This document shows positions 10,947-63,534 of a stretch of DNA of 64,000 bases, in pieces. Below the pieces are notes generated by a model. The model ran no database searches and was not told the origin of the DNA. It worked only from the letters and a program-made list of their open reading frames with translations. The stretch is from Somniosus microcephalus. Lineage: Eukaryota. Each line of letters starts with the position of its first letter. Position 1 is the stretch's first letter. The DNA is taken from positions 239,568,001 to 239,632,000 of the forward strand of contig CM126207.1 in the NCBI GenBank assembly GCA_052327205.1. The letters run 5' to 3'. A program made the position numbers and the translations under genes.

Positions 10947-11362
10947 ATTTAAAATTAATTAAAATACAATTTAATTAAATATTTTTTTTTTTAATTAATT
11001 TTTTGAAAAATAAATCTAAATGTTTTAAAGAGGCTAAAAATAACAGTACCTTATTTTACAGGTGTTTTAATGTTTAAATGATTGAAAAAATTATTTTTAT
11101 ATTCATTGAAACTCTTACGCTGGTAAAAGCAGGCTTTACGCCTGCTTTTACCAGGCATAAGAATTTCACGGGCATTCACAGGGCAGTAGTTGGGCAAGCC
11201 AACTCTCTGCCCTTCTCCCGGGGATGTGGATGATCTGTCAAGAAGATTCTTGACAGATCACAAGTTCCGGGTTTTTGCGCATGCGCTTCGCACGCGAAAA
11301 CCCGGAACTTGCAGGGCCCTTACGGGCGCGTATGCACCCATAGACACCGAAAAATACGGGTC
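10947..11362. mobile_element. Partial Harbinger-type MITE (one half), similar to 53860-54251
   Basis: AT-rich core followed by cttacgctggtaaaagcagg...cctgcttttaccagg and a TIR-like end aaaaatacgggtc. Confidence 0.6.
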
Positions 11363-11802
11363 ATTAAATTCAAAACTTCATTTGTTGATGGGAGGGGTCT
11401 TATCATATTTCTCACTTACAATAGCAGTATTACAATGCTCTTTTCTCTGTCACAAAGCTGAATCACATACTCAAAATATTCTGATTAACTAACTAAGCTT
11501 TTAGTTTAAGTTAGATGGGAGTTTTGAATATTTATTTTTAAATATTTGGTGTTGATGCTATCAACATGGGATGGCAAATAGGAATCGCTAAGTGCTATAA
11601 TGACAAATAATTGAATTTTATCAGTGGACACAGTAATTAGCCTTAGGTGCTTCAGTGATCATATTGAGTATCTTTATTCAAGTCCACATACAGGCACTGT
11701 AACTTCTGAAAACCAGTTTTGCTAATAATATCATTGGCACTCAAATCTTACGTACTTCTAGAAATGCATTTGAAACATTTAAAGTCAAATTTCTAACACT
11801 AT

Positions 11803-12518
11803 GGCCCAGATTTTACAGGGCCTATGATGGCGTACACACAGTGTACATCGTCGTAAGTGCTCCGCAAGTTCTAGCATGCGCGAAAACCCAGAACTTGCTA
11901 TGTCAATTGACTTTCGCTGGCACAGAGTTGGGCTATTTGCCCAGCTACTGCCCAGCGAATACCCACCAAACCCTTACGTCTGATAAAAGCAGGCATAAGA
12001 CATTCTTTTACCAGCGTAAGCGTTTAAATAAATGTTAAAATAACATTTTTTAAATGATTTAAACATTCCCTTACATTTAAAATTAGGTTAGGTTATTTTT
12101 GTCCCATTTAAAAATGTTAACATTTATTTTTCAAAAAATTAGATTTTTATTTTTAATTTTTAATTAAATGGTATTTTAATTAATTTTGAACCTGTGATTA
12201 ATTATTTTTATTTCAGTGTTGTGAAATTGTATTTTTTAGGGGATTCCTATTATGCTTATGGGGATTCCATACATAAATGGAATTCCCCTAAGCATAATAG
12301 GAATCCCCCTTTGTCATTGGCTGGGCTGGCCTACATGATCCCAGGGATGCTTGCGAACCGCATGCACCCCTGGGATACGTGGGCCTTTACGCAGACGTAC
12401 GCCAGCAGGCCCAGGACCGCAAGAGTTCGAAGGTCCGCAGGCAGCAGGTAAGTGCAGAGTTTTCTTGCGGTTCGGTAGTGTTCGCCCACAGCAAGCCTCC
12501 GACTGTAATTTCCAGGCC
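11803..12518. mobile_element. Harbinger-type MITE, family A
   Basis: Ends ggcccagatttt / aatttccaggcc; flanks TAT/TTT. Reverse-complement homologue of 53538-54251 along its length. Confidence 0.8.
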
Positions 12519-52555: not shown

Positions 52556-53537
52556 GTGGTGTTTGAAATAAACATGGATAGTAACAATTAAGAAATCAGA
52601 TACCAAGTTCATATGCTTTCAAAATGACGTGACTTAACCTGGTATTTAGAACATTTTGAAAAGACATCTTGTATAGGTTTGATCTGTTTCTTATTACTTT
52701 ATAATTACAGGGTAAGTAAGTCAACCAAAGAGTTCTTTTCCTCTAATCCTTGTCTTTGATTTTGTTGCAAAAAAAAATGAATATTCAATACACATGAAAG
52801 CAGTGATCCAGAACTCATAATAAAACCTGCACCAGTCCAGATGCTCAAGGAATATTCAAGTCTATAAACAAGGCAGTATGCTATGCACCAATTCAACAGA
52901 CAGATACATAGGGCATACACATATCCACAAATTATTTGATGCAGTTCCAAATACCCATTGAGCTGGTGAATTATCAGAATTAGTCATACCGAAGGAGTGG
53001 TTACTTCCTCCCTAGCTTAAAACACAAAATTGTACTCTTTATTCTCTAAACCAATACAATTGAGAATTGACTAAATAGATGTTGGCTCCAATACACCAAA
53101 TAAAAATGGAAGATTGGAGTCTTGCCATTAGAGAATATTAATCATTTTGAGTAGAACTGTTTCCTGCTCAGTCTTAGAAAAAACCTTCCATAGGTATTGG
53201 CAAGGCTCTGTATTCAGTAAAATATTCTAATTTATATTTATTTCTGTTTCCAGATGGCCTCACCAGATAACCACAATTTGGGGTAAAGGTTTCCATATAA
53301 TCTCAAGTCTTACTTGATGCATGTTAATTTTAGACTTCTTTCATGTAGTTCTGCACTCACAGTCCAAGTTGAAATAACTTCCTATCAGTATTATCCATTT
53401 CACACTTATTAAGATACCCTTTATTAGTTATATAAATGCAAACTACTGAGGATGGTCGAAATCTGAAATAAAAACAGTGAATGCTGGAAATACTCAGTCG
53501 GTCAGGCAGCATCTGTAGAGAGAGAAACAGAGTTAAC

Positions 53538-54251
53538 GGGGTAGAAACTGCAGTCAGAGGAGGCTTGCCGTGGGCAAACGCCTCCGAATCGTAAGAAAAC
53601 TACGCACCTACCTGATTGCTCCGGACCTTCGGACTCTTGCGGTCCTGGGCCTGCATAAAGGCCCACGTATCCCAGGGGCGCATGAGGTTCACAAGCATCC
53701 CTGGGGTCATGTGGGCCAGCCCAACCAATGAGAAAGGGGGTTTCCCATTATGCTTATGGGGATTCCATTTACGTACAGAATCCCAATGAGCATAATAGGA
53801 ATCATCTAAAAAATACATTTTCACACAACCTAAATAAAATAAATTATCACAGGTTCAAAATTAATTAAAATACTATTTATTTAAACATTTAAAATAAAAA
53901 TTTAATTAAAAAAAATTTTTTTTTTTTTTTAAATGGGACAAAAATAACCTAAACTAATTTTAAATGTAAGGGAATATATAAATGATTTAAAAAAATTATT
54001 TTAGCATTTATTTTAACCCTTACATTGGTAAAAGAAGGCCTGTGCCTGCTTTTACCAGGCGGAAGGGTTTGGTGGTTATTCGCTGGGCAGTTGTTGGGCA
54101 AATAGCCCAACTATGTGGCAGCGAATGTCAGTTTCCAGCGGATGCATACAATCTATAAATCAGAAACTTGACGGATCGCAAGTTCTGGGTGTTCTCACAT
54201 GCGGCGGCATATGACAGCGTACGCCTTTGTAGGCCCTGTAAAATCTGGGCC
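53538..54251. mobile_element. Harbinger-type MITE, family A (inverted relative to 11803-12518)
   Basis: Ends ggggtagaaact / aaaatctgggcc; interrupts the palindrome arm at agagttAAC|gtttcagg. Confidence 0.82.
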
Positions 54252-54254
54252 ATT

Positions 54255-54280
54255 GTTTCAGGTCGGTGACCTTTCAACAG
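54255..54280 (-). ncRNA. Degenerate minimal hammerhead-ribozyme-like core
   Basis: Minus strand reads CTGTTGA-A-AGGTC-ACC-GACCT-GAAAC: a CUGAUGA-like box, a 5-bp stem II and the GAAA box. The downstream stem III is interrupted by a MITE. Confidence 0.5.
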
Positions 54281-54282
54281 TT

Positions 54283-54307
54283 CAATGAAAGGTCCTCAAC
54301 CTGAAAC
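54283..54307 (+). ncRNA. Second, more degenerate hammerhead-like core (mirror copy)
   Basis: CAATGA-A-AGGTC-CTC-AACCT-GAAAC; first box mutated, stem II with one mismatch. Confidence 0.4.
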
Positions 54308-54310
54308 ATT

Positions 54311-55140
54311 GGGCTCGAATTTCCAAGCCCCGTGGAGGCGGGTTGGAGGCGGGAGTGGGGGGAAAATTGCAGAATTGGGGGGCACGAACCCTTCCCGCCC
54401 CCAACCCACCTCCATGCCCTTTTCCAAGAGGCGGATACCCGACCTGTGCTGGGAGCTGCCTCCCCGAGGCGGGAAGGGGATTAGTGCCAATTAACTGCCT
54501 GTTAACAGGCAGTTAATGGGCAGTTTTTGGCCTAATCCCTATTTTTAGCCCTGAAGTGTGGGCTGCCCGACGGCTCCAAACCACGCCAAGTTAGCAAGGC
54601 GGACCGTCGGGCTGAAGGGCTTGGAGGGTTTGAGATGTCCGGTGTTCAGGTGAGTGATGAGTGCAGAGGTAAGCATGTTTGGTGTGTGTAAAGTGTTTAA
54701 ATAAGTTTTACTTACCTTTACTTACTAATGCAGGCTTCCTTCCTTCAGGTCTCGGGGTCCCTCATCTCACTGGCACAGAAAGCAGAATGGTCACGAGCTG
54801 TCAAAAGTTGCAGCATTCTGCTTTCTGTTCTGGAGAGATTTCTAACTGAGTCTGTGGAGGACTCAAGTTAGAAGTCAGATTGTCAGTGTTTGACAGCTTC
54901 ACAGAGCTGTCAAACGCTGATATTTCATCTATCAAAATCTCTTGACAGATGAAATGTCAATCCCTGATGTCACCTGTAACCGGGTGTCCCTTAATTGGCC
55001 TGCTGAGCCCGCCCAGCGGGCTCAGCAATGTCAATCAAGGGAAAATTGCGTGGGTTGGCCACAAATCGATGGAGGCGGGACTACAACCCAAAAAGTGGGA
55101 GTCCCGCCTCCATCATGTCCCCATTGACAAAATCCAGCCC
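54311..55140. mobile_element. Harbinger-type MITE (different family)
   Basis: Ends gggctcgaattt / aaaatccagccc; flanks ATT/GTT; ggcggg-rich subtermini similar to 2580-2647. Confidence 0.78.
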
Positions 55141-56513
55141 GTTGACTCTGTCTCTCTCTCCACAGATGCTGCCTGATCTGCTGAGTGTTTCCAGCATTTT
55201 CTGTTTTTTATTTCTTTATTAGTTATGTTGCCCTTTTAACACCCCTGCACATTGCTCATAGTTTTGAATATTTACTTTTCTTACATTGTGCATAAAGCTA
55301 ATGTCTAAAAAAAAGTTAAAATATTGGTATCTTAGTCGGGAGTAAGCATAACTACCTCACCAGTTAATACACTAGAGAGACATTACAGCCACTGTTAGAC
55401 CACCAATGTAATATTTATATTGGAAGTAATTCTATGTAGATCAAGTCAGGGAGAAAAAACTTGCAATGAATAAAAGAATAAGCCAATTGAGAGCTGTCCT
55501 CTGAATAACACATAGTACTTAGCCTAGTTAGTTTATTCCAAAATAACTGAAGTATTCCCACTGAAAATAACTTGGACTACCATTGCAGTGTAACTTTGCT
55601 GCCAATGCTATGTAGACTGGTGTTGGAGAAAGCAAAGAAAGAGGTGTTCTTGCTTCCTTTTCATCGGAACCAGTTGTATTATGTCTGCAGTTGGTGCAAA
55701 GTTTATTTTTAAATGTAGATTTTTCTTAAACTCTCCAAATACTGTAAATTGACTTTCAAAAGACATGTCAGTCCAATCCATTCATCCCAATTAGAAGAAA
55801 TTGAATTGAGTCAAAATCAGAAGCAATGCTCCGTCCACGTGTTTGAAAAGCTCCAGAAGTCTCTCCATTCCTTCCTGGTGGCCTGTGTAACTCGCTAAAA
55901 TACTGTCAGTTTTACATCAGTAGCTACACCCTTAAGACAGTTTGAAAAGTATCTGCATTAAGGAGTTATACAGACAGCAGATGGTTTAAGCTTGTATTTT
56001 GTTCTTGTCTTCTGACATGGACATGGGAAGGGTGCAGTAAGCTGGTTCAAAACTTCTCAGTTGATTGTGCTGGGTTAAGATATGGACACATTGGGGGAGA
56101 AATTCAACTCATGGTTGTCCATTTTGTGTACGCACCTTTTTAAAAAAAAGTTGTGTTAAGTGCATGTTACATTATGTTTAGCATATTGTCATGTTAAGCT
56201 ATCATCATCTCACATTTTGTTGATTTCGGATATATATATGGATGTAGGCTTAAAGAGTTATGGCCTGTTTCCATTTACTGTAATTGTCTCTGATGGTGAT
56301 CTTGTTTATGGCAATTACTGTCTTGACTAAACATTCAGTAAGTTGTAATAGGACAGGAACCAAATTAGAAACATATTTGGCCTAAGTTGGGGCAAAATCT
56401 TCAGGTGGAACTAATTATATGGCAAAGAACAGCAATGAACTATACAAGTACAGTGTACTTGTTTCAGCATGGTGTTTTCTTTTATTTGTTCCTTTTTTTG
56501 TCAGAAACACCAT

Positions 56514-57403: not shown

Positions 57404-57917
57404 TATGTCCCTCTCTTCTGCTCTTCTGATCCAGCAATTAGTAAAGTCAAAAGCTCTTTTGACATTAATATTGCAGCATGTCATAGTCTTTTCACAACCT
57501 GCTATGTATGTGTATGAGTGTGAGGTGTTTTAGTCAACATTGAGTTTCGAAATTTTGGCCTAGAAATTCATTGTAGCCACTTTTGGGGCGGTAAAGTCGG
57601 GCGGCCGCTAAAGTTTGCGCCCGCCGCCAAATCGAGGCCACTTCTCCGATATTCATTAGCTTTGCCCTAAGAGTTTGCTCGAGCGCTAAAACTGGCGCTG
57701 GACGCCTCTCTTTAGGCGCTAAGCCGGAGGTGCTGAGCGAGAGCACCGAGGCCGGGCGCAGCGCAGGTGCGGCCATCTCGTGATTGACAGCAGACACCCT
57801 GGCGCCGGCCAGCTCTTAAGGGGGAAGGGTCGACTTGGTCTGCTGCCACGCCCTGGATAGTGGAGCCCTCCAGCTAGGCCTGAACACTGCTGCTGGACCC
57901 AAATAGCGCCTGAAGCC

Positions 57918-59915
57918 ATGCAGAAGGCCCGTGAACGAGCGCAGCGCTTCTCAGAGCGTGATCTGAGTGTGCTGGTTGGTGGTGTGGAGAAGAGGCGCCA
58001 TCTTTTGTACCTGGACAATGGCAGGAAGGCGCCGGTCCGCGTCTACCGGAGAGCCTGGAGGCATGTCGCCAGCAAGGTGTCAGCCAACAGCGAGGTCCCC
58101 AGGACCGGTGTCCAATGCCGCAAAAAGTTTAATGACCTCACTCGGATTGTCAGGGTGAGTACCCTTTCCAGTGACCTCCTCATCCTTGCATGTGCACCTC
58201 ACCTTATGGGCAAAGGGACCTGAAAGCCCTAATGGCCAGCCCTCATCCAGCAGCTATGGGACAGGCATGAACATCAATTGCACATTCTGCACTTAACACA
58301 CTGGCCAAGCTATTCCACCATGGGAGGCAGTGCACACAAGATCAGGGCGACACACTGGCCAGGCTATTCCACCATGGGAGGCAGTGTACACAAGATCAGG
58401 GCGACATACTGGCCAGGCTATTCCACCATGGGAGGCAGTGCACACAAGATCAGGGCGACACACTGTACTTAGAGGCCGTCCTTTCTCTTGCAGGCCAAGC
58501 TGGCCAATAATAGGAAGAGCCGGACTGCGACCGGGGGAGGCCGACCCCAGATCCAGCCGCTCACAGAGCTGCAACATCGCGTGGAGCGCATCATGGGTGG
58601 CCGGGTGATTGGCCCCGTTGCATGTGGAGATGCCGACCCTGTTCTGGGCACCAATGGTAAGGACATCACCTTTTGGACCTCTCTCGTCCCATTTGCGCAT
58701 CAGATCTACATCCTTTGCCACTGTCCGACCAATGCGCTGAATGCCACCACTCATGCATCCCTCGCTGACGCCCTCTCCTCACTCTAAAGCTACTCTTGTG
58801 CCTTCCTGCTTTCAGATGGTGAGGAGGAGGTCCCTGAACTTGCCAGTGACAGCCCCTCAGAAGAGGAGGAGGAGGAGGAGGAGCAAGAGGAAGGCGGCCC
58901 ATCAGGGGAACCCTCAGCCGCGGCAACCCATGCGAATGTAGGGGACACGTCTTCCCTGGAGGGGAGCGTGGCAGAAGTGTCGGAGGGGAGGGGAGCTCAT
59001 GGGACCTACGGCCTGCAGAAACGCGGGAGGGGGGTGGAAGCTCAGCGGCCTTCTCCCCAGAGGGGGGAAGGGTCGGAGGGGAGTCCAATTGCTGGGCCCA
59101 GCGGCGTCCAGCAACTCAGGAAGGGTCGGCCAGCTCGGCGGCCTTCTCCCCAGAGGGAGAGTCCGGCCTCCAGTCCGGAGATGGTCTTCGCCGAGGAGAT
59201 GGAACGCCTCGAGGACTTGTCCGCGGACTCGGAGCGCCGGCACACGGAGCTCATGGGGGTAGTGGCACGGTTGCCTGAGGCCATCGAGTCCCTCTCTCGG
59301 AGTGTGACCGACGTCGGGGCCTCACAGGCCATCAGTTTGGCGGAATTCGGGGCAGAGCAGGCAGCGAGTCGGGCGGCATTCGGGGCAGCTCAGGCAGCGA
59401 GTGGGCAGCTGATCAGTGGTGCCGTGCAGTCACTGGGTGCTCTGATGAGGTCACTGAACAGGTCAACACGGGCACTCACTGCTGCCACACTCGCTGTGTC
59501 AGCCAGGCATCGCCAGGGCACCCGGCGCGCTGCAGCAGCACAGCGGTCTGTCCCTCGGCAGATTGGTGCGCATGCTGCAGTGCTGGCCCGGGCGAGTGCC
59601 AGTGTCTCAGGCGACCAGCGAGCGCCTGCCATCCGCCAGCTTGCCCCCATTCCTCCAGCCGCCACTGCCACTACCCCAGTGGAGCTGCCAGGAGCTGCTG
59701 CAGCGACTGATGCTGGCCAGCCACAGCTGCAGCATTCAACAGCCGCCCGCTCGACGGCCAGACCTCGACTAGGCCGACCCCCAAGGGCATCTGCCGTCAC
59801 GACATGTGCCCCTCTGGAGCCTGCCCCCAGCCTTGCAGCAGCCAATGGCTTTACTTTGAGGAGGAGCAGCAGGGCGGGCAGGGGCCACACAAAGATGGCC
59901 AAGGCATCGCCCTAG
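57918..59915 (+). CDS. Harbinger Myb/SANT-like DNA-binding protein; predicted exons 57918-58154, 58494-58656, 58816-59915 (499 aa)
   Basis: RFSERDLSVLV...AWRHVASKVSA...RTGVQCRKKFNDL Myb/SANT-like domain. GT/AG junctions give one open frame (237+163+1100 = 1500 nt). Contains a TGGG motif, an acidic tract and RPRLGRPPR. Confidence 0.88.
58297..58465. repeat. Three 54-bp tandem repeats in intron 1
   Basis: cacactggcca(a/g)gctattccaccatgggaggcagtg(c/t)acacaagatcagggcga units at 58297, 58351, 58405. Confidence 0.92.
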
Positions 59916-59946
59916 CGGGCCAAAAAGTCGAATGTGTGGCCAGTTG

Positions 59947-60112
59947 TGTTTGTTTTTTGAGGCCGAGAATTGGATGTTTGTTTTTTGAGGCCGAGAATTG
60001 AATGTTTGTTTTTTGAGGCCGAGAATTGGATGTTTGTTTTTTGAGGCCGAGAATTGGATGTTTGTTTTTTGAAGGCCGAGGATGTGATGTTTGTTTTTTA
60101 CGAAGGCTGAGG
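59947..60112. repeat. About 28-bp tandem repeats (5-6 copies) between the convergent genes
   Basis: tgtttgttttttgaggccgagaattgga units. Confidence 0.9.
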
Positions 60113-60375
60113 ATGACGGCCATTTTAGTTGCACTGTTTTGTTAATCCTCTCCAGGTTGTGGGAGCGAGTAATGTGTTTGAGTGTTTTTTGGGGGTTTCG
60201 TCTGTTTTTGGTTTTCATGTGGGAAAGGCCCTGAGTTTGTACAATAAAGCATTTTATTTATTAACATTGTCCATGTTTGATCTTTGAAGTGTTTGTTGCC
60301 TTAACCGGCTGAGGGCTTGCGGAGCGGCTGCAGTCATGTTCTTTCATTGGCACAAGCCATTCCCTGACAGGGGGC

Positions 60376-61518
60376 CTAGAAGTGACATTCAATAAGCCGC
60401 CGACGGGCGGCCCTTGGACCTTGTGCCTCCCTCCTGGGCTGGTACTCCTCGTCCTCCTCCTCCTCATGCTCCTCTTGCTCCTCCTCCTGAGGTGGTGGTC
60501 CAATGTGAGTTGGCAGTGCCTGAGTCCTGCAGATAGCCAGGTTGTGCAGCATGCAGCAAACGATGACGAATTGGGAGACTCGCTCCTGCGAATACTGGAG
60601 GGCTCCCCCAGAGCGATCGAGACAGCGGAACCGTTGCTTGAGGACGCCGATTGTTTGTTCTATGATGTTCCTAGTCGCCTGATGGCTCTCGTTGTATGCC
60701 TCTTCAGCAGGGGTCGTGGGTGCGCGGAGCGGGGTCATGAGCCAGGTACACAAAGGATAGCCTTTGTCTCCGATAAGCCATCCTCTTGGGTGAGGCTGTG
60801 CCTGGAACATGTCAGCCACAGTTGTCTGTTGCAGGATAAAGGCATTGTGGCTGCTGCCTGGAAAGCGGGCATTGACAGCTAGGATGCGCTGCCTGTGGTC
60901 ACACACCAGCTGTACGTTGAGGGAATGGTAGCCCTTCCGGTTGCGGTAATCCTCGGCATGCTCCAGAGGTGCCCGCAAAGCCACATGCGTGCAGTCAATG
61001 GCGCCCTGCACCATGGGGAAGCCCGCTATTCTTGCAAATCCCACTGCACGCTGCTGCTGCTTGTCCAGGGTCATGGGGAAGGAGATGAATTGATGTCTCC
61101 TTCTGAAAAGGGCTTCGGTCACCTGGCGGATGCAGCAATGCACGGCGAACTGGGAGATGTTAGCGATGTCCCCAGCAGCGGATTGGAAGGAGCCGGTGGC
61201 ATAGAAGTTGAGAGCCACCGTCACCTTCACTGCCACCGACAGAGACGTCCTGCGCATCAGCTGTGGCTGCAGATCTCTGTGAAGCAGCTGGCAGATGTCT
61301 GCAACCACCTCCCTTCTGAATCGCAGCCTCCTGACACACATCGCGGCAGACATGGTCAGATAGGACTGCTGGCGGTATACCCTGGGTGGGTAAGGCCTCA
61401 GTTGGCGACGCCTGTTGCCCCCTCTGCATCTAGCCAGGGCTGCCACTCTCTCACGGCGTCTGTAAGCCCTTCTGGCATAAGGCTGAAAGTCAGCGTTGGC
61501 ACCCAATGCAGCCCCCAT
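60376..61518 (-). CDS. HARBI1-like PIF/Harbinger DDE transposase (380 aa)
   Basis: LNFYATGS, GAIDCTHV, YRNRKGYHSLNVQLVCD, FPGSSHNA, LIGDKGY, YNESHQATRNIIEQTIGVLKQRFRCL, CCMLHN; open frame. Confidence 0.95.
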   Translation of the reverse strand: MGAALGANADFQPYARRAYRRRERVAALARCRGGNRRRQLRPYPPRVYRQQSYLTMSAAMCVRRLRFRREVVADICQLLHRDLQPQLMRRTSLSVAVKVTVALNFYATGSFQSAAGDIANISQFAVHCCIRQVTEALFRRRHQFISFPMTLDKQQQRAVGFARIAGFPMVQGAIDCTHVALRAPLEHAEDYRNRKGYHSLNVQLVCDHRQRILAVNARFPGSSHNAFILQQTTVADMFQAQPHPRGWLIGDKGYPLCTWLMTPLRAPTTPAEEAYNESHQATRNIIEQTIGVLKQRFRCLDRSGGALQYSQERVSQFVIVCCMLHNLAICRTQALPTHIGPPPQEEEQEEHEEEEDEEYQPRREAQGPRAARRRLIECHF

Positions 61519-63534
61519 TATATGCTGGCAAACACTGAGCTCTCAATGAAGGCAAAGATAATTGCTAAGCTCTGGCCTGAGCCAAAAATACCTGTCCTAG
61601 TGTTGGTCCAAACCAGTAAGCTCTCCTCCTTGGTCTCTCTCCAAAAAACCGTTGCACAAGAGTGAATGCTGCAAAATGGCTGGCCTTTATAGTGCAGGGT
61701 AAGTGCCCTTTAATTAGCGCTCCCTGCGGCCCGCCTCGGCTGTGTACCGTTCCACTTCACAGTCGTTAGGGCCGCCCGGCGCACAATGGCCCGGCGCGAG
61801 TGAAGTTCCGGTTCGGGGCGCACAAAGGGCGTTGCACGATGAAATGACGTCATGATCTGCGCGCGCAGCAGGGCACGCGCTAAGACTTTGCGCCGGCGCT
61901 AAATGTGTACTGAAGTTGGGGCGAGGCGCAGATCGCGCTGCGCCCGGCCGCTAAGCGCCTAGCGCTCGAGATCTACTCCTCCTAAGGCGCTAACGGCTGG
62001 CGCGCCCAACTGAATTTCTAGGCCTTTATTTCTTGCAGTTAGCTGGTAGTTAAAAGGCAACAATGGAAAATGATCTTCTAAGGGATTGGAAGTGGCACCA
62101 ACACCTGTACATGCTTCAGCCATGCTGCAGATAGTGTCTCACCTGTCTAAACCTTTCACAAGATTAAGTTTACAAAATGTGTCATCCTGCAAGATGGTCT
62201 AAAAGGAACTATTGGGGCTAGAGCCAGAGACTCCCTGCGCTGGGATTTCCCGCTCCTCAGTCTCAGTTGGGATCTGGTATTTGTGTGGAGGACAGTACGA
62301 CCAGCGAGGTGAGGTGTACTGATCCCAAGGGCAGGTGGTAGACCTACCGGCGAGATCCAGGCTAGGCAAGCGGTCTGGAAGAATAGGAATTTAAAAAAAG
62401 AAAAATTTGGACAGGTGGTCGAAGGGAAGCATGGCAGGGTCATGGAGGGCCCAGACAATCTCTGCACCCCAAGGGCAGGTGTTAGAGTTTCCATCAGTCA
62501 TGGACAAATGGGCGCTTAAAATGTACCCAAAGTGGCATTTGTGCCACCTGTCTCATGTAAATGAGTTGCCCCCCCACTGACCCTGCATACTCTGTTGGGG
62601 GTCAGCCCTCGATGGCAGCTGATAGAGGTAGGTGAAGTGACCGTGAATTTATAATTGCAAGCTTCTTATGAAGTTAATGATGCTAAGGCATTGATGAATT
62701 GGATATACTTTTGGTTCTCATCTTGGATGACGATAAATGTTGAGTAAAATTGTTGTCTGCTATGCAGGTTTTTTGTGGTCAGCCAAGTGTCTGATGTGTG
62801 TGGAAATGCCTCATCATTTTTAACAGTTTCCCAACTGAGCTACTGAAAAATGCAGAAATGTGGAGTACGCACTTTCTCTCCACAAGGACATTCCCTACCT
62901 CAATTAGATCACCCCTGAAAAAGTTGCAGCATTGAGTGTAGATGCTTGATGTCAAGATACTCACCAAACCCTTGCATTGCTAGACACATCTGTGAATGTC
63001 ATCTTGAAGAACTACCTCAACCATCCTTCGCCACAAATAAGTTGAATTGGAATGCCTTGTAAAGGATGGTTACAGATAATTTAGATAACCTTGCTTGAGC
63101 TGAGGATTCTTGCACTAACACAGCAACATTTGTGCATTCAGTTGGTTATCTAACCTTTCCTACTCTGGATTGCTATTTCTGTTGCAGTACTATATCAAAC
63201 TCAGTCAAGCATTATTCTTATAAACTTGCAGGGAGTAACTAATGCCCTGAATTTAATAGCCTGTGATACTAGCAGATAAACTCTGAAATTCCCCACTCCA
63301 CTATTTTAGTGGCGATGTTGAGGCATTATTTTAAATGGATTAATGCTTAAGCTCAAATAATGGAGGGAAGAATTTCAGACAGATGCATTGCTGTTTGTGC
63401 AGTACTAGCTCATAGTGTAACGTTAGGACCTCTCATTATCAGATATTCACTGTAACTAAGTTTAACTTCCTCTACTGAGTGTAATAGAACTTCTGCAAGA
63501 ACCTGGGGAAATATTTGTTCTAATTAGAGCTTAT

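Follow-up and report, generated by a model that had tools for sequence, protein, structure and literature searches.

The window analysed here is a stretch of 64,000 nucleotides of Somniosus microcephalus (GenBank assembly GCA_052327205.1, contig CM126207.1, positions 239,568,001 to 239,632,000, forward strand). The subject is a palindromic repeat at 53460..55214 of this window, which was entered by two MITEs (miniature inverted-repeat transposable elements) with Harbinger-type ends, one in each arm. The arms appear to be the inverted-duplicated 3' end of a Penelope-like element (PLE), and each carries a sequence resembling a minimal hammerhead ribozyme. The two elements, MITE1 and MITE2, their target-site duplications (TSDs) and the remaining parts of the palindrome are located as follows:

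53460..53534, minus strand: outer part of the left arm, putative PLE 3' end (inverted copy), 86% complementary to 55133-55208
53535..53537, plus strand: outer TSD copy of MITE1, AAC
53538..54251, no strand: MITE1, 714 bp, with Harbinger-type ends GGGGTAGAAACT / GGCCCAGATTTT
54252..54254, plus strand: inner TSD copy of MITE1, ATT, two changes from AAC
54255..54280, minus strand: putative degenerate minimal-hammerhead core (CTGTTGA, helix II, GAAAC)
54283..54307, plus strand: putative degenerate minimal-hammerhead core (CAATGA, helix II, GAAAC)
54308..54310, plus strand: inner TSD copy of MITE2, ATT, a CpG decay of GTT, which would be the predicted NUH triplet
54311..55140, no strand: MITE2, 830 bp, with ends GGGCTCGAATTT / GGGCTGGATTTT
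55141..55143, plus strand: outer TSD copy of MITE2, GTT
55144..55214, plus strand: outer part of the right arm, putative PLE 3' end

MITE1 is flanked by AAC and ATT, and MITE2 by ATT and GTT. The same triplet was entered in either arm of the palindrome, and blastn detected no significant similarity between the two elements (best E 0.07). Both have short terminal inverted repeats (TIRs), with 12-bp ends of the GGSSNNRAWWTT type that match imperfectly between the two ends of an element. After excision of both MITEs together with one TSD copy each, a 205-bp self-complementary remnant was obtained (170 of 215 aligned columns), with a predicted RNA fold of -142 kcal/mol (z -23 against 100 dinucleotide shuffles). 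The TSD pair of MITE2 (AAC/AAT on the minus strand) is explained by one CpG decay, and that of MITE1 requires CpG decay plus an A>T change. The original prediction, made from the letters of the window, had described two unrelated MITEs at mirror-equivalent triplets, a palindrome of about 200 bp left after their removal, and imperfect TSDs partly due to CpG decay; all of this was borne out. It had also placed back-to-back CTG(A/T)TGA cores at the centre, a description that has to be corrected, since the minus strand of this copy reads CTGTTGA, in which the conserved A is replaced, and its plus strand reads CAATGA; neither fits CUGAnGA.

The identity of the arm was derived from other copies of the repeat family in the assembly (6.45 Gb searched). 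In most of 30 sampled copies the arm continued into a longer element, not into a mirror arm; a mirror arm lay within about 60 nt in 4 of the 30 sampled arms, so most family copies are not short palindromes. The outer sequence of the left arm was also found downstream of GIY-YIG open reading frames in family copies. Upstream frames in the hammerhead sense matched GIY-YIG (PF01541) in 3 of 3 candidates (E 1e-4 to 6e-4, one above the curated cut-off), and in these three family copies the frames sat 230-370 nt upstream of the hammerhead site. A 254-aa frame resembling a reverse transcriptase (RT), located upstream in the family copy at locus L168, had no Pfam match, and we take its RYTDD and GVAMG motifs to resemble those of Penelope RT. 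Because the upstream frames encode a GIY-YIG nuclease and an RT-like stretch, the palindrome arm is, judged by its sequence, the 3' end of a Penelope-like retrotransposon in inverted duplication. There are 2,267 empty short palindromes genome-wide, and their centres differ among the 50 listed. Such short palindromes with variable centres correspond to the inverted truncated insertions known for PLEs.

A junction pattern for filled sites gave 3,777 matches genome-wide, versus 1 for the reversed control. Among the first 30 of these matches, 24 were true insertions and 6 were point variants of empty sites. Scaling by 24/30 gives about 3,000 filled sites versus 55,308 exact empty sites, an occupancy of 5.2%. 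A map of insertion points along the repeat, which the original prediction had proposed as a check, displayed the anticipated spike at the triplet. In a search allowing a free gap of 0-30 over a 31-position stretch, 85 of the 97 distinct sites among the first 100 of 1,624 matches (counted by eye) lay at the triplet. Of the others, 6 belonged to a minor site located six bases upstream, and the remaining 6 were elsewhere or at unclear positions. The adjoining upstream stretch yielded 61 matches genome-wide, a number not normalised for anchor copy number, of which about 9 represented the same triplet in deleted copies.

Fourteen complete insertions at the triplet fell into 9 sequence groups at 80/80 (the mis-bounded locus L007 was omitted). 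Their TSDs were identical in 11 of the 14 pairs and differed by C/T or one base in the other 3, and L007 had AAT/AAT; the duplications were mostly AAC/AAC or AAT/AAT. At locus L022, the insertion was followed by a DDE_Tnp_4 frame. The hotspot is real, with about 1 in 20 copies filled by many different MITE families. The proposal of sequence-specific, independent Harbinger hits at this triplet is well supported by about 3,000 filled sites, many families and proper TSDs.

AAT was present at 43 of 100 listed filled sites versus 15 of 100 listed empty sites, and at 4 of 13 sites in a genome-wide sample, a comparison confounded by region and by post-insertion CpG decay. Arm divergence did not differ significantly between filled and empty copies (24 vs 19, P=0.21), so it offers no evidence for host age as a cause of occupancy differences. 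In the first 16 Mb of contig 1, 100 empty sites and no filled site were found among the matches listed, which suggests regional differences in Harbinger occupancy.

Among short palindromes, 260 were single-filled and 13 double-filled, in addition to the empty ones, giving 5.6% per arm. The number of doubles expected was 8.05, so the observed number was 1.6-fold higher (P=0.066). The double hit of the window belongs to a small class that chance would produce given the hotspot, and no extra targeting is needed to account for it. The original argument that two hits would be unlikely without targeting therefore stands with regard to site preference, which is real, but not with regard to any additional targeting of the double. 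A palindrome of this kind could extrude as a hairpin or cruciform and attract the transposase in that form, a reading to which the very stable fold (z -23) and the slight excess of doubles (13 vs 8) would lend some weight. However, the per-arm occupancy of 5.6% in short palindromes is close to the 5.2% of all arms, most of which have no close mirror arm. Cruciform targeting was rejected on this equal occupancy and is very improbable.

The hits would also not be independent if a MITE-palindrome composite had been amplified as one unit, the outcome that the original prediction had set against its own reading. The genome showed the opposite: the centres of the 13 double-filled palindromes differ (matches of 58-78 nt), as judged on centres and terminal bases, and the complete insertions at the hotspot fall into the 9 groups given above. 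Nothing spoke in favour of the amplification of one composite; it was rejected on the differing centres of the 13 doubles, to the extent that centres and terminal bases reveal it, and is extremely improbable.

A general target preference was established with an unbiased set of Harbinger-type ends, which was collected from 160 evenly placed 10-kb stretches (1.6 Mb). After 7 internal false ends were dropped from the 134 found, 127 ends were retained, among which other false ends may remain. The flanks of 52 of the 127 matched DRANWY, versus a background of 3.0% (P 6e-45). All-A/T TSDs were present at 73 of the 127, and 17 of 25 paired ends had identical TSDs (pairs chosen with at most one mismatch). 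There is a general palindromic target preference of approximately RANWY-WWW-RWNTY. The hammerhead site, AGAGTT-AAC-GTTTCA, fits this motif on both halves (GAGTT, and GAAAC on the other strand), and of 6 empty arms scanned, 5 had their highest score at the hammerhead triplet.

Considering these results, we propose, with a probability of roughly 0.8, that the two MITEs hit the arms of the PLE end because the arm triplets match the genome-wide Harbinger target preference; the triplet hotspot within the PLE end likely has the same cause. In this scenario, a 5'-truncated, inverted-duplicated PLE end would have formed first, and two unrelated Harbinger-type MITEs would later have entered it, one per arm, guided by the match of the arm triplet to the extended palindromic sequence. 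The transposase/Myb pair would recognise the DNA sequence itself, as has been published for other Harbingers, the GAAAC of the hammerhead would happen to equal a good half-site, and ribozyme activity and hairpin formation would have no role in targeting. The hotspot is most readily understood as the outcome of a known Harbinger transposase property acting on an abundant repeat in which the motif is present.

Only 1 of the 127 unbiased ends falls in the hammerhead repeat. Other repeats recurred in the same set, with 5 ends in one tail resembling a long or short interspersed nuclear element (LINE/SINE) and 2-3 ends in each of two LINE coding sites. The 5 ends in the tail, which is of the GATTCTAT type, were at loci L043, L130, L131, L149 and L193. 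The two LINE sites, chosen because they were recurrent in the 127-end sample, were counted genome-wide. At LINE site 1 (GTACTC-TAT-GCCTCT), 16-19 of the first 100 copies were filled and 1,732 right junctions matched; the site reaches 16-19% filling even though its right half fits the pooled motif poorly. LINE site 2, in the RT-coding region (GGACAC-AAA-GAG), was filled in about 1,050 copies versus 2,167 empty ones, i.e. in about 33% of exact-anchor copies, and is the strongest hotspot seen. These values are approximate, as the filled number was obtained by scaling 59 of 100 rows to 1,787 and the empty sites were counted separately (a first pattern ending in H had excluded most of them).

The counts at other repeats bear on the claim of the original prediction that the hammerhead repeat is a special landing pad. 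On that account, the repeat would be a dedicated target on which Harbingers have specialised, as some target-specific transposons have on multicopy RNA genes. The sharp spike at the triplet, the many families at one triplet and an occupancy about 4-fold above the pooled matrix of the motif would agree with it. Against it, one end in 127 lies within the repeat, so that most copies are not in one target; moreover, relatives of both MITEs were found elsewhere, and occupancy at the two LINE sites is 3-6 times higher, with a larger excess over the matrix. A dedicated landing pad was largely refuted for the bulk of the families by the 1/127 ends and the more occupied LINE sites, and it is very improbable; the claim gives way to a general motif match.

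Several results weigh against the proposed match to the general preference as a full account. At each of the three hotspots the pooled independent-position matrix gives too low an occupancy, by 4- to 35-fold: the predictions were 0.4% (AAC) or 5.4% (AAT variant) versus about 5% observed at the hammerhead site, 0.5% versus 16-19% at LINE site 1, and 1.4-12% versus 33% at LINE site 2. C is rare in the third TSD position across the genome, at 3% of ends, yet at least one AAC is retained by 12 of 15 paired insertions at the hotspot. The better right flanks predicted for filled copies of LINE site 1 were not borne out, as most of the 100 listed keep GCCTC. The 1.6-fold excess of double-filled palindromes belongs here as well. 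Additionally, blastn of either MITE against 20 transposase loci revealed no autonomous partner with direct homology (no match at E 1e-4); transposase loci do carry the TIR class of the MITEs. The matrix accounts for the position of the hammerhead site and not for its degree of filling. Of the three hotspots, the hammerhead site deviates least. The shortfall could stem from host age, CpG depletion, blurring by old mutations or the pooling of families with different preferences, as there are differences between the two TIR classes. Neither the right flanks of LINE site 1 nor arm divergence gave support to ideas of this kind.

Alternatively, the sequence match may place the site while a further feature raises its use, for example a methylated C in AA(mC)G that mimics the preferred T, DNA shape or a longer context. 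AAC is rare as a TSD elsewhere and the main form at the hammerhead site, all three hotspots exceed the matrix, and about 12 of the 17 perfect AAC-G sites in the sample belong to the hammerhead repeat, the matrix having almost no other CpG sites. However, CpG depletion and post-insertion decay alone would lower the C count in the matrix, and both LINE hotspots, neither of which has a CpG in its TSD, are filled beyond the matrix prediction. We consider such a further feature possible but not likely.

The hammerhead reading itself was examined in family copies, 15 of 30 empty ones having an intact CTGAnGA. These copies have a predicted 4-bp helix I and 5-bp helix II, with ACGU where helix III would stand. 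Pairing of helices I and II is possible, with 90.6% of cells paired in 19 distinct copies versus 12-42% in slid controls (22 of the 30 copies were aligned, 8 rearranged ones were omitted, and the search pattern had set the 3' part). No compensatory change was found at any of the 9 helix pairs in the 22 aligned copies (0/9), which counts against a hammerhead. Moreover, the base of helix II (the G10.1-C11.1 position) is A-U in 10 of 19 copies and G-U in 9 of 19, the conserved G-C being present in none. A search with hammerhead models, which the original prediction had suggested, brought no Rfam match at E<=1 in the window or at E<=5 in 10 empty-copy loci, a weak negative for minimal forms without helix III.

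We take the duplicated triplet GTT to be the predicted GUU cleavage triplet. Because GTT is the duplicated TSD, GAAAC-GTT is kept on the 5' side of the insertion. The insertion would lie immediately 3' of the predicted triplet; by displacing the 3' strand of helix I, it would part this helix from the hammerhead core, leaving helix III unbroken. The suggestion that insertion breaks stem III is thus replaced by a predicted loss of the helix I strand, and the cores of the window copy are mutated anyway.

A closer connection between ribozyme and target can be imagined. The letters required by the Penelope hammerhead (GAAAC, the cleavage triplet and the helix I strand) would spell a near-ideal Harbinger target at the scissile bond, so that selection on the ribozyme would renew the landing site, about 1 in 20 Penelope ends would be disabled, and methyl-CpG might replace the preferred T. 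We regard this as doubtful; most likely, the hammerhead link itself is coincidental. A literature search by title and start of abstract, with most subscription papers and Repbase reports outside it, found no report of Harbinger insertion into Penelope hammerheads.

The MITE2 family is abundant, with long matches in many sampled loci. A second copy of the MITE1 family is located at about 11802-12518 of the window (83% identical); its flank AACAC-TAT fits the motif, and it lies outside the hammerhead repeat. A more distant MITE1 relative is located at about 10948-11285. In many MITE copies the 12-bp end on one side of the element differs at several positions from that on the other, and different end types are found paired with each other. 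At 57557-62024 the window contains a 4.5-kb element bounded by GGCCTAGAAATT ends, with internal tandem repeats and a DDE_Tnp_4 frame at 60532-61392 on the minus strand (E 4e-38). Genome-wide, a first look gave 96,622 DDE_Tnp_4 candidates; 150 were scored, and open frames of about 386 aa are present in many of these.

For this very large Harbinger-type population, the present data provide a measured target motif together with natural occupancies at three repeat sites (5%, 16-19% and about 33%). These figures bear on the site choice of the transposase and on repeat nesting in the genome.

Inverted 5'-truncated structures of PLE insertions, termed pseudo-long terminal repeats (pLTRs), were described by Craig et al. 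2021 (PMC8557442). As in those structures, an inverted truncated copy adjoins the element end and gives inverted repeats here, with centres that vary between copies; the truncation here is extreme, as only about 100 bp per arm remains. Minimal hammerheads in the pLTRs of PLEs, including pairs of motifs on opposite strands, were published by Cervera and de la Pena 2014 (PMC4209133), and intact family copies fit this minimal hammerhead in their predicted structure. The common features are the CUGAnGA core, an unpaired base before helix II, GAAA, a palindromic ACGU for helix III, a 4-bp helix I, a location near the 3' end of a GIY-YIG-coding element and the opposite-strand pairs. Unlike the published hammerheads, the candidates have A-U or G-U and not G-C at the base of helix II, a helix II of 5 bp and the triplet GUU; both cores are mutated in the window copy.

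PIF/Harbinger elements are stated to prefer an extended palindromic target, of 9 bp in plants and of 15 bp in vertebrates (PMC2836001), and Harbinger3_DR integrates into AAACACCWGGTCTTT (PMC3016246). Like Harbinger3_DR, mPing and PIF, the elements studied here have a 3-bp TSD within a longer palindromic preferred sequence, short TIRs starting with GG and non-autonomous MITEs (PMC3016246, PMC2836001), and the left half AAACAC of the Harbinger3_DR target fits the DRANWY pattern (PMC3016246). Unlike in those systems, the TSD is A/T-rich (AAT, ATT, ATA, TAA and TAT, with AAC at the hammerhead site) and not CWG or strictly TWA, the preference is looser, and hotspots within other repeats were quantified. 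Harbingers have been reported absent from the elephant shark, and a check of other cartilaginous fish was requested (PMC9179366); the very large Harbinger-type load of Somniosus microcephalus is the opposite extreme. Finally, the PHIS subgroups were defined by their TSDs as Pangu (ANT), NuwaI (CWG) and NuwaII (C|TNA|G) (Han et al. 2015, PMC4482050). The elements of S. microcephalus share with PHIS related DDE transposases, GG or GGG starts of the TIRs and a 3-bp TSD, and with NuwaII a TSD that is often preceded by C and followed by G, whereas their TSD spectrum fits none of the subgroups exactly.

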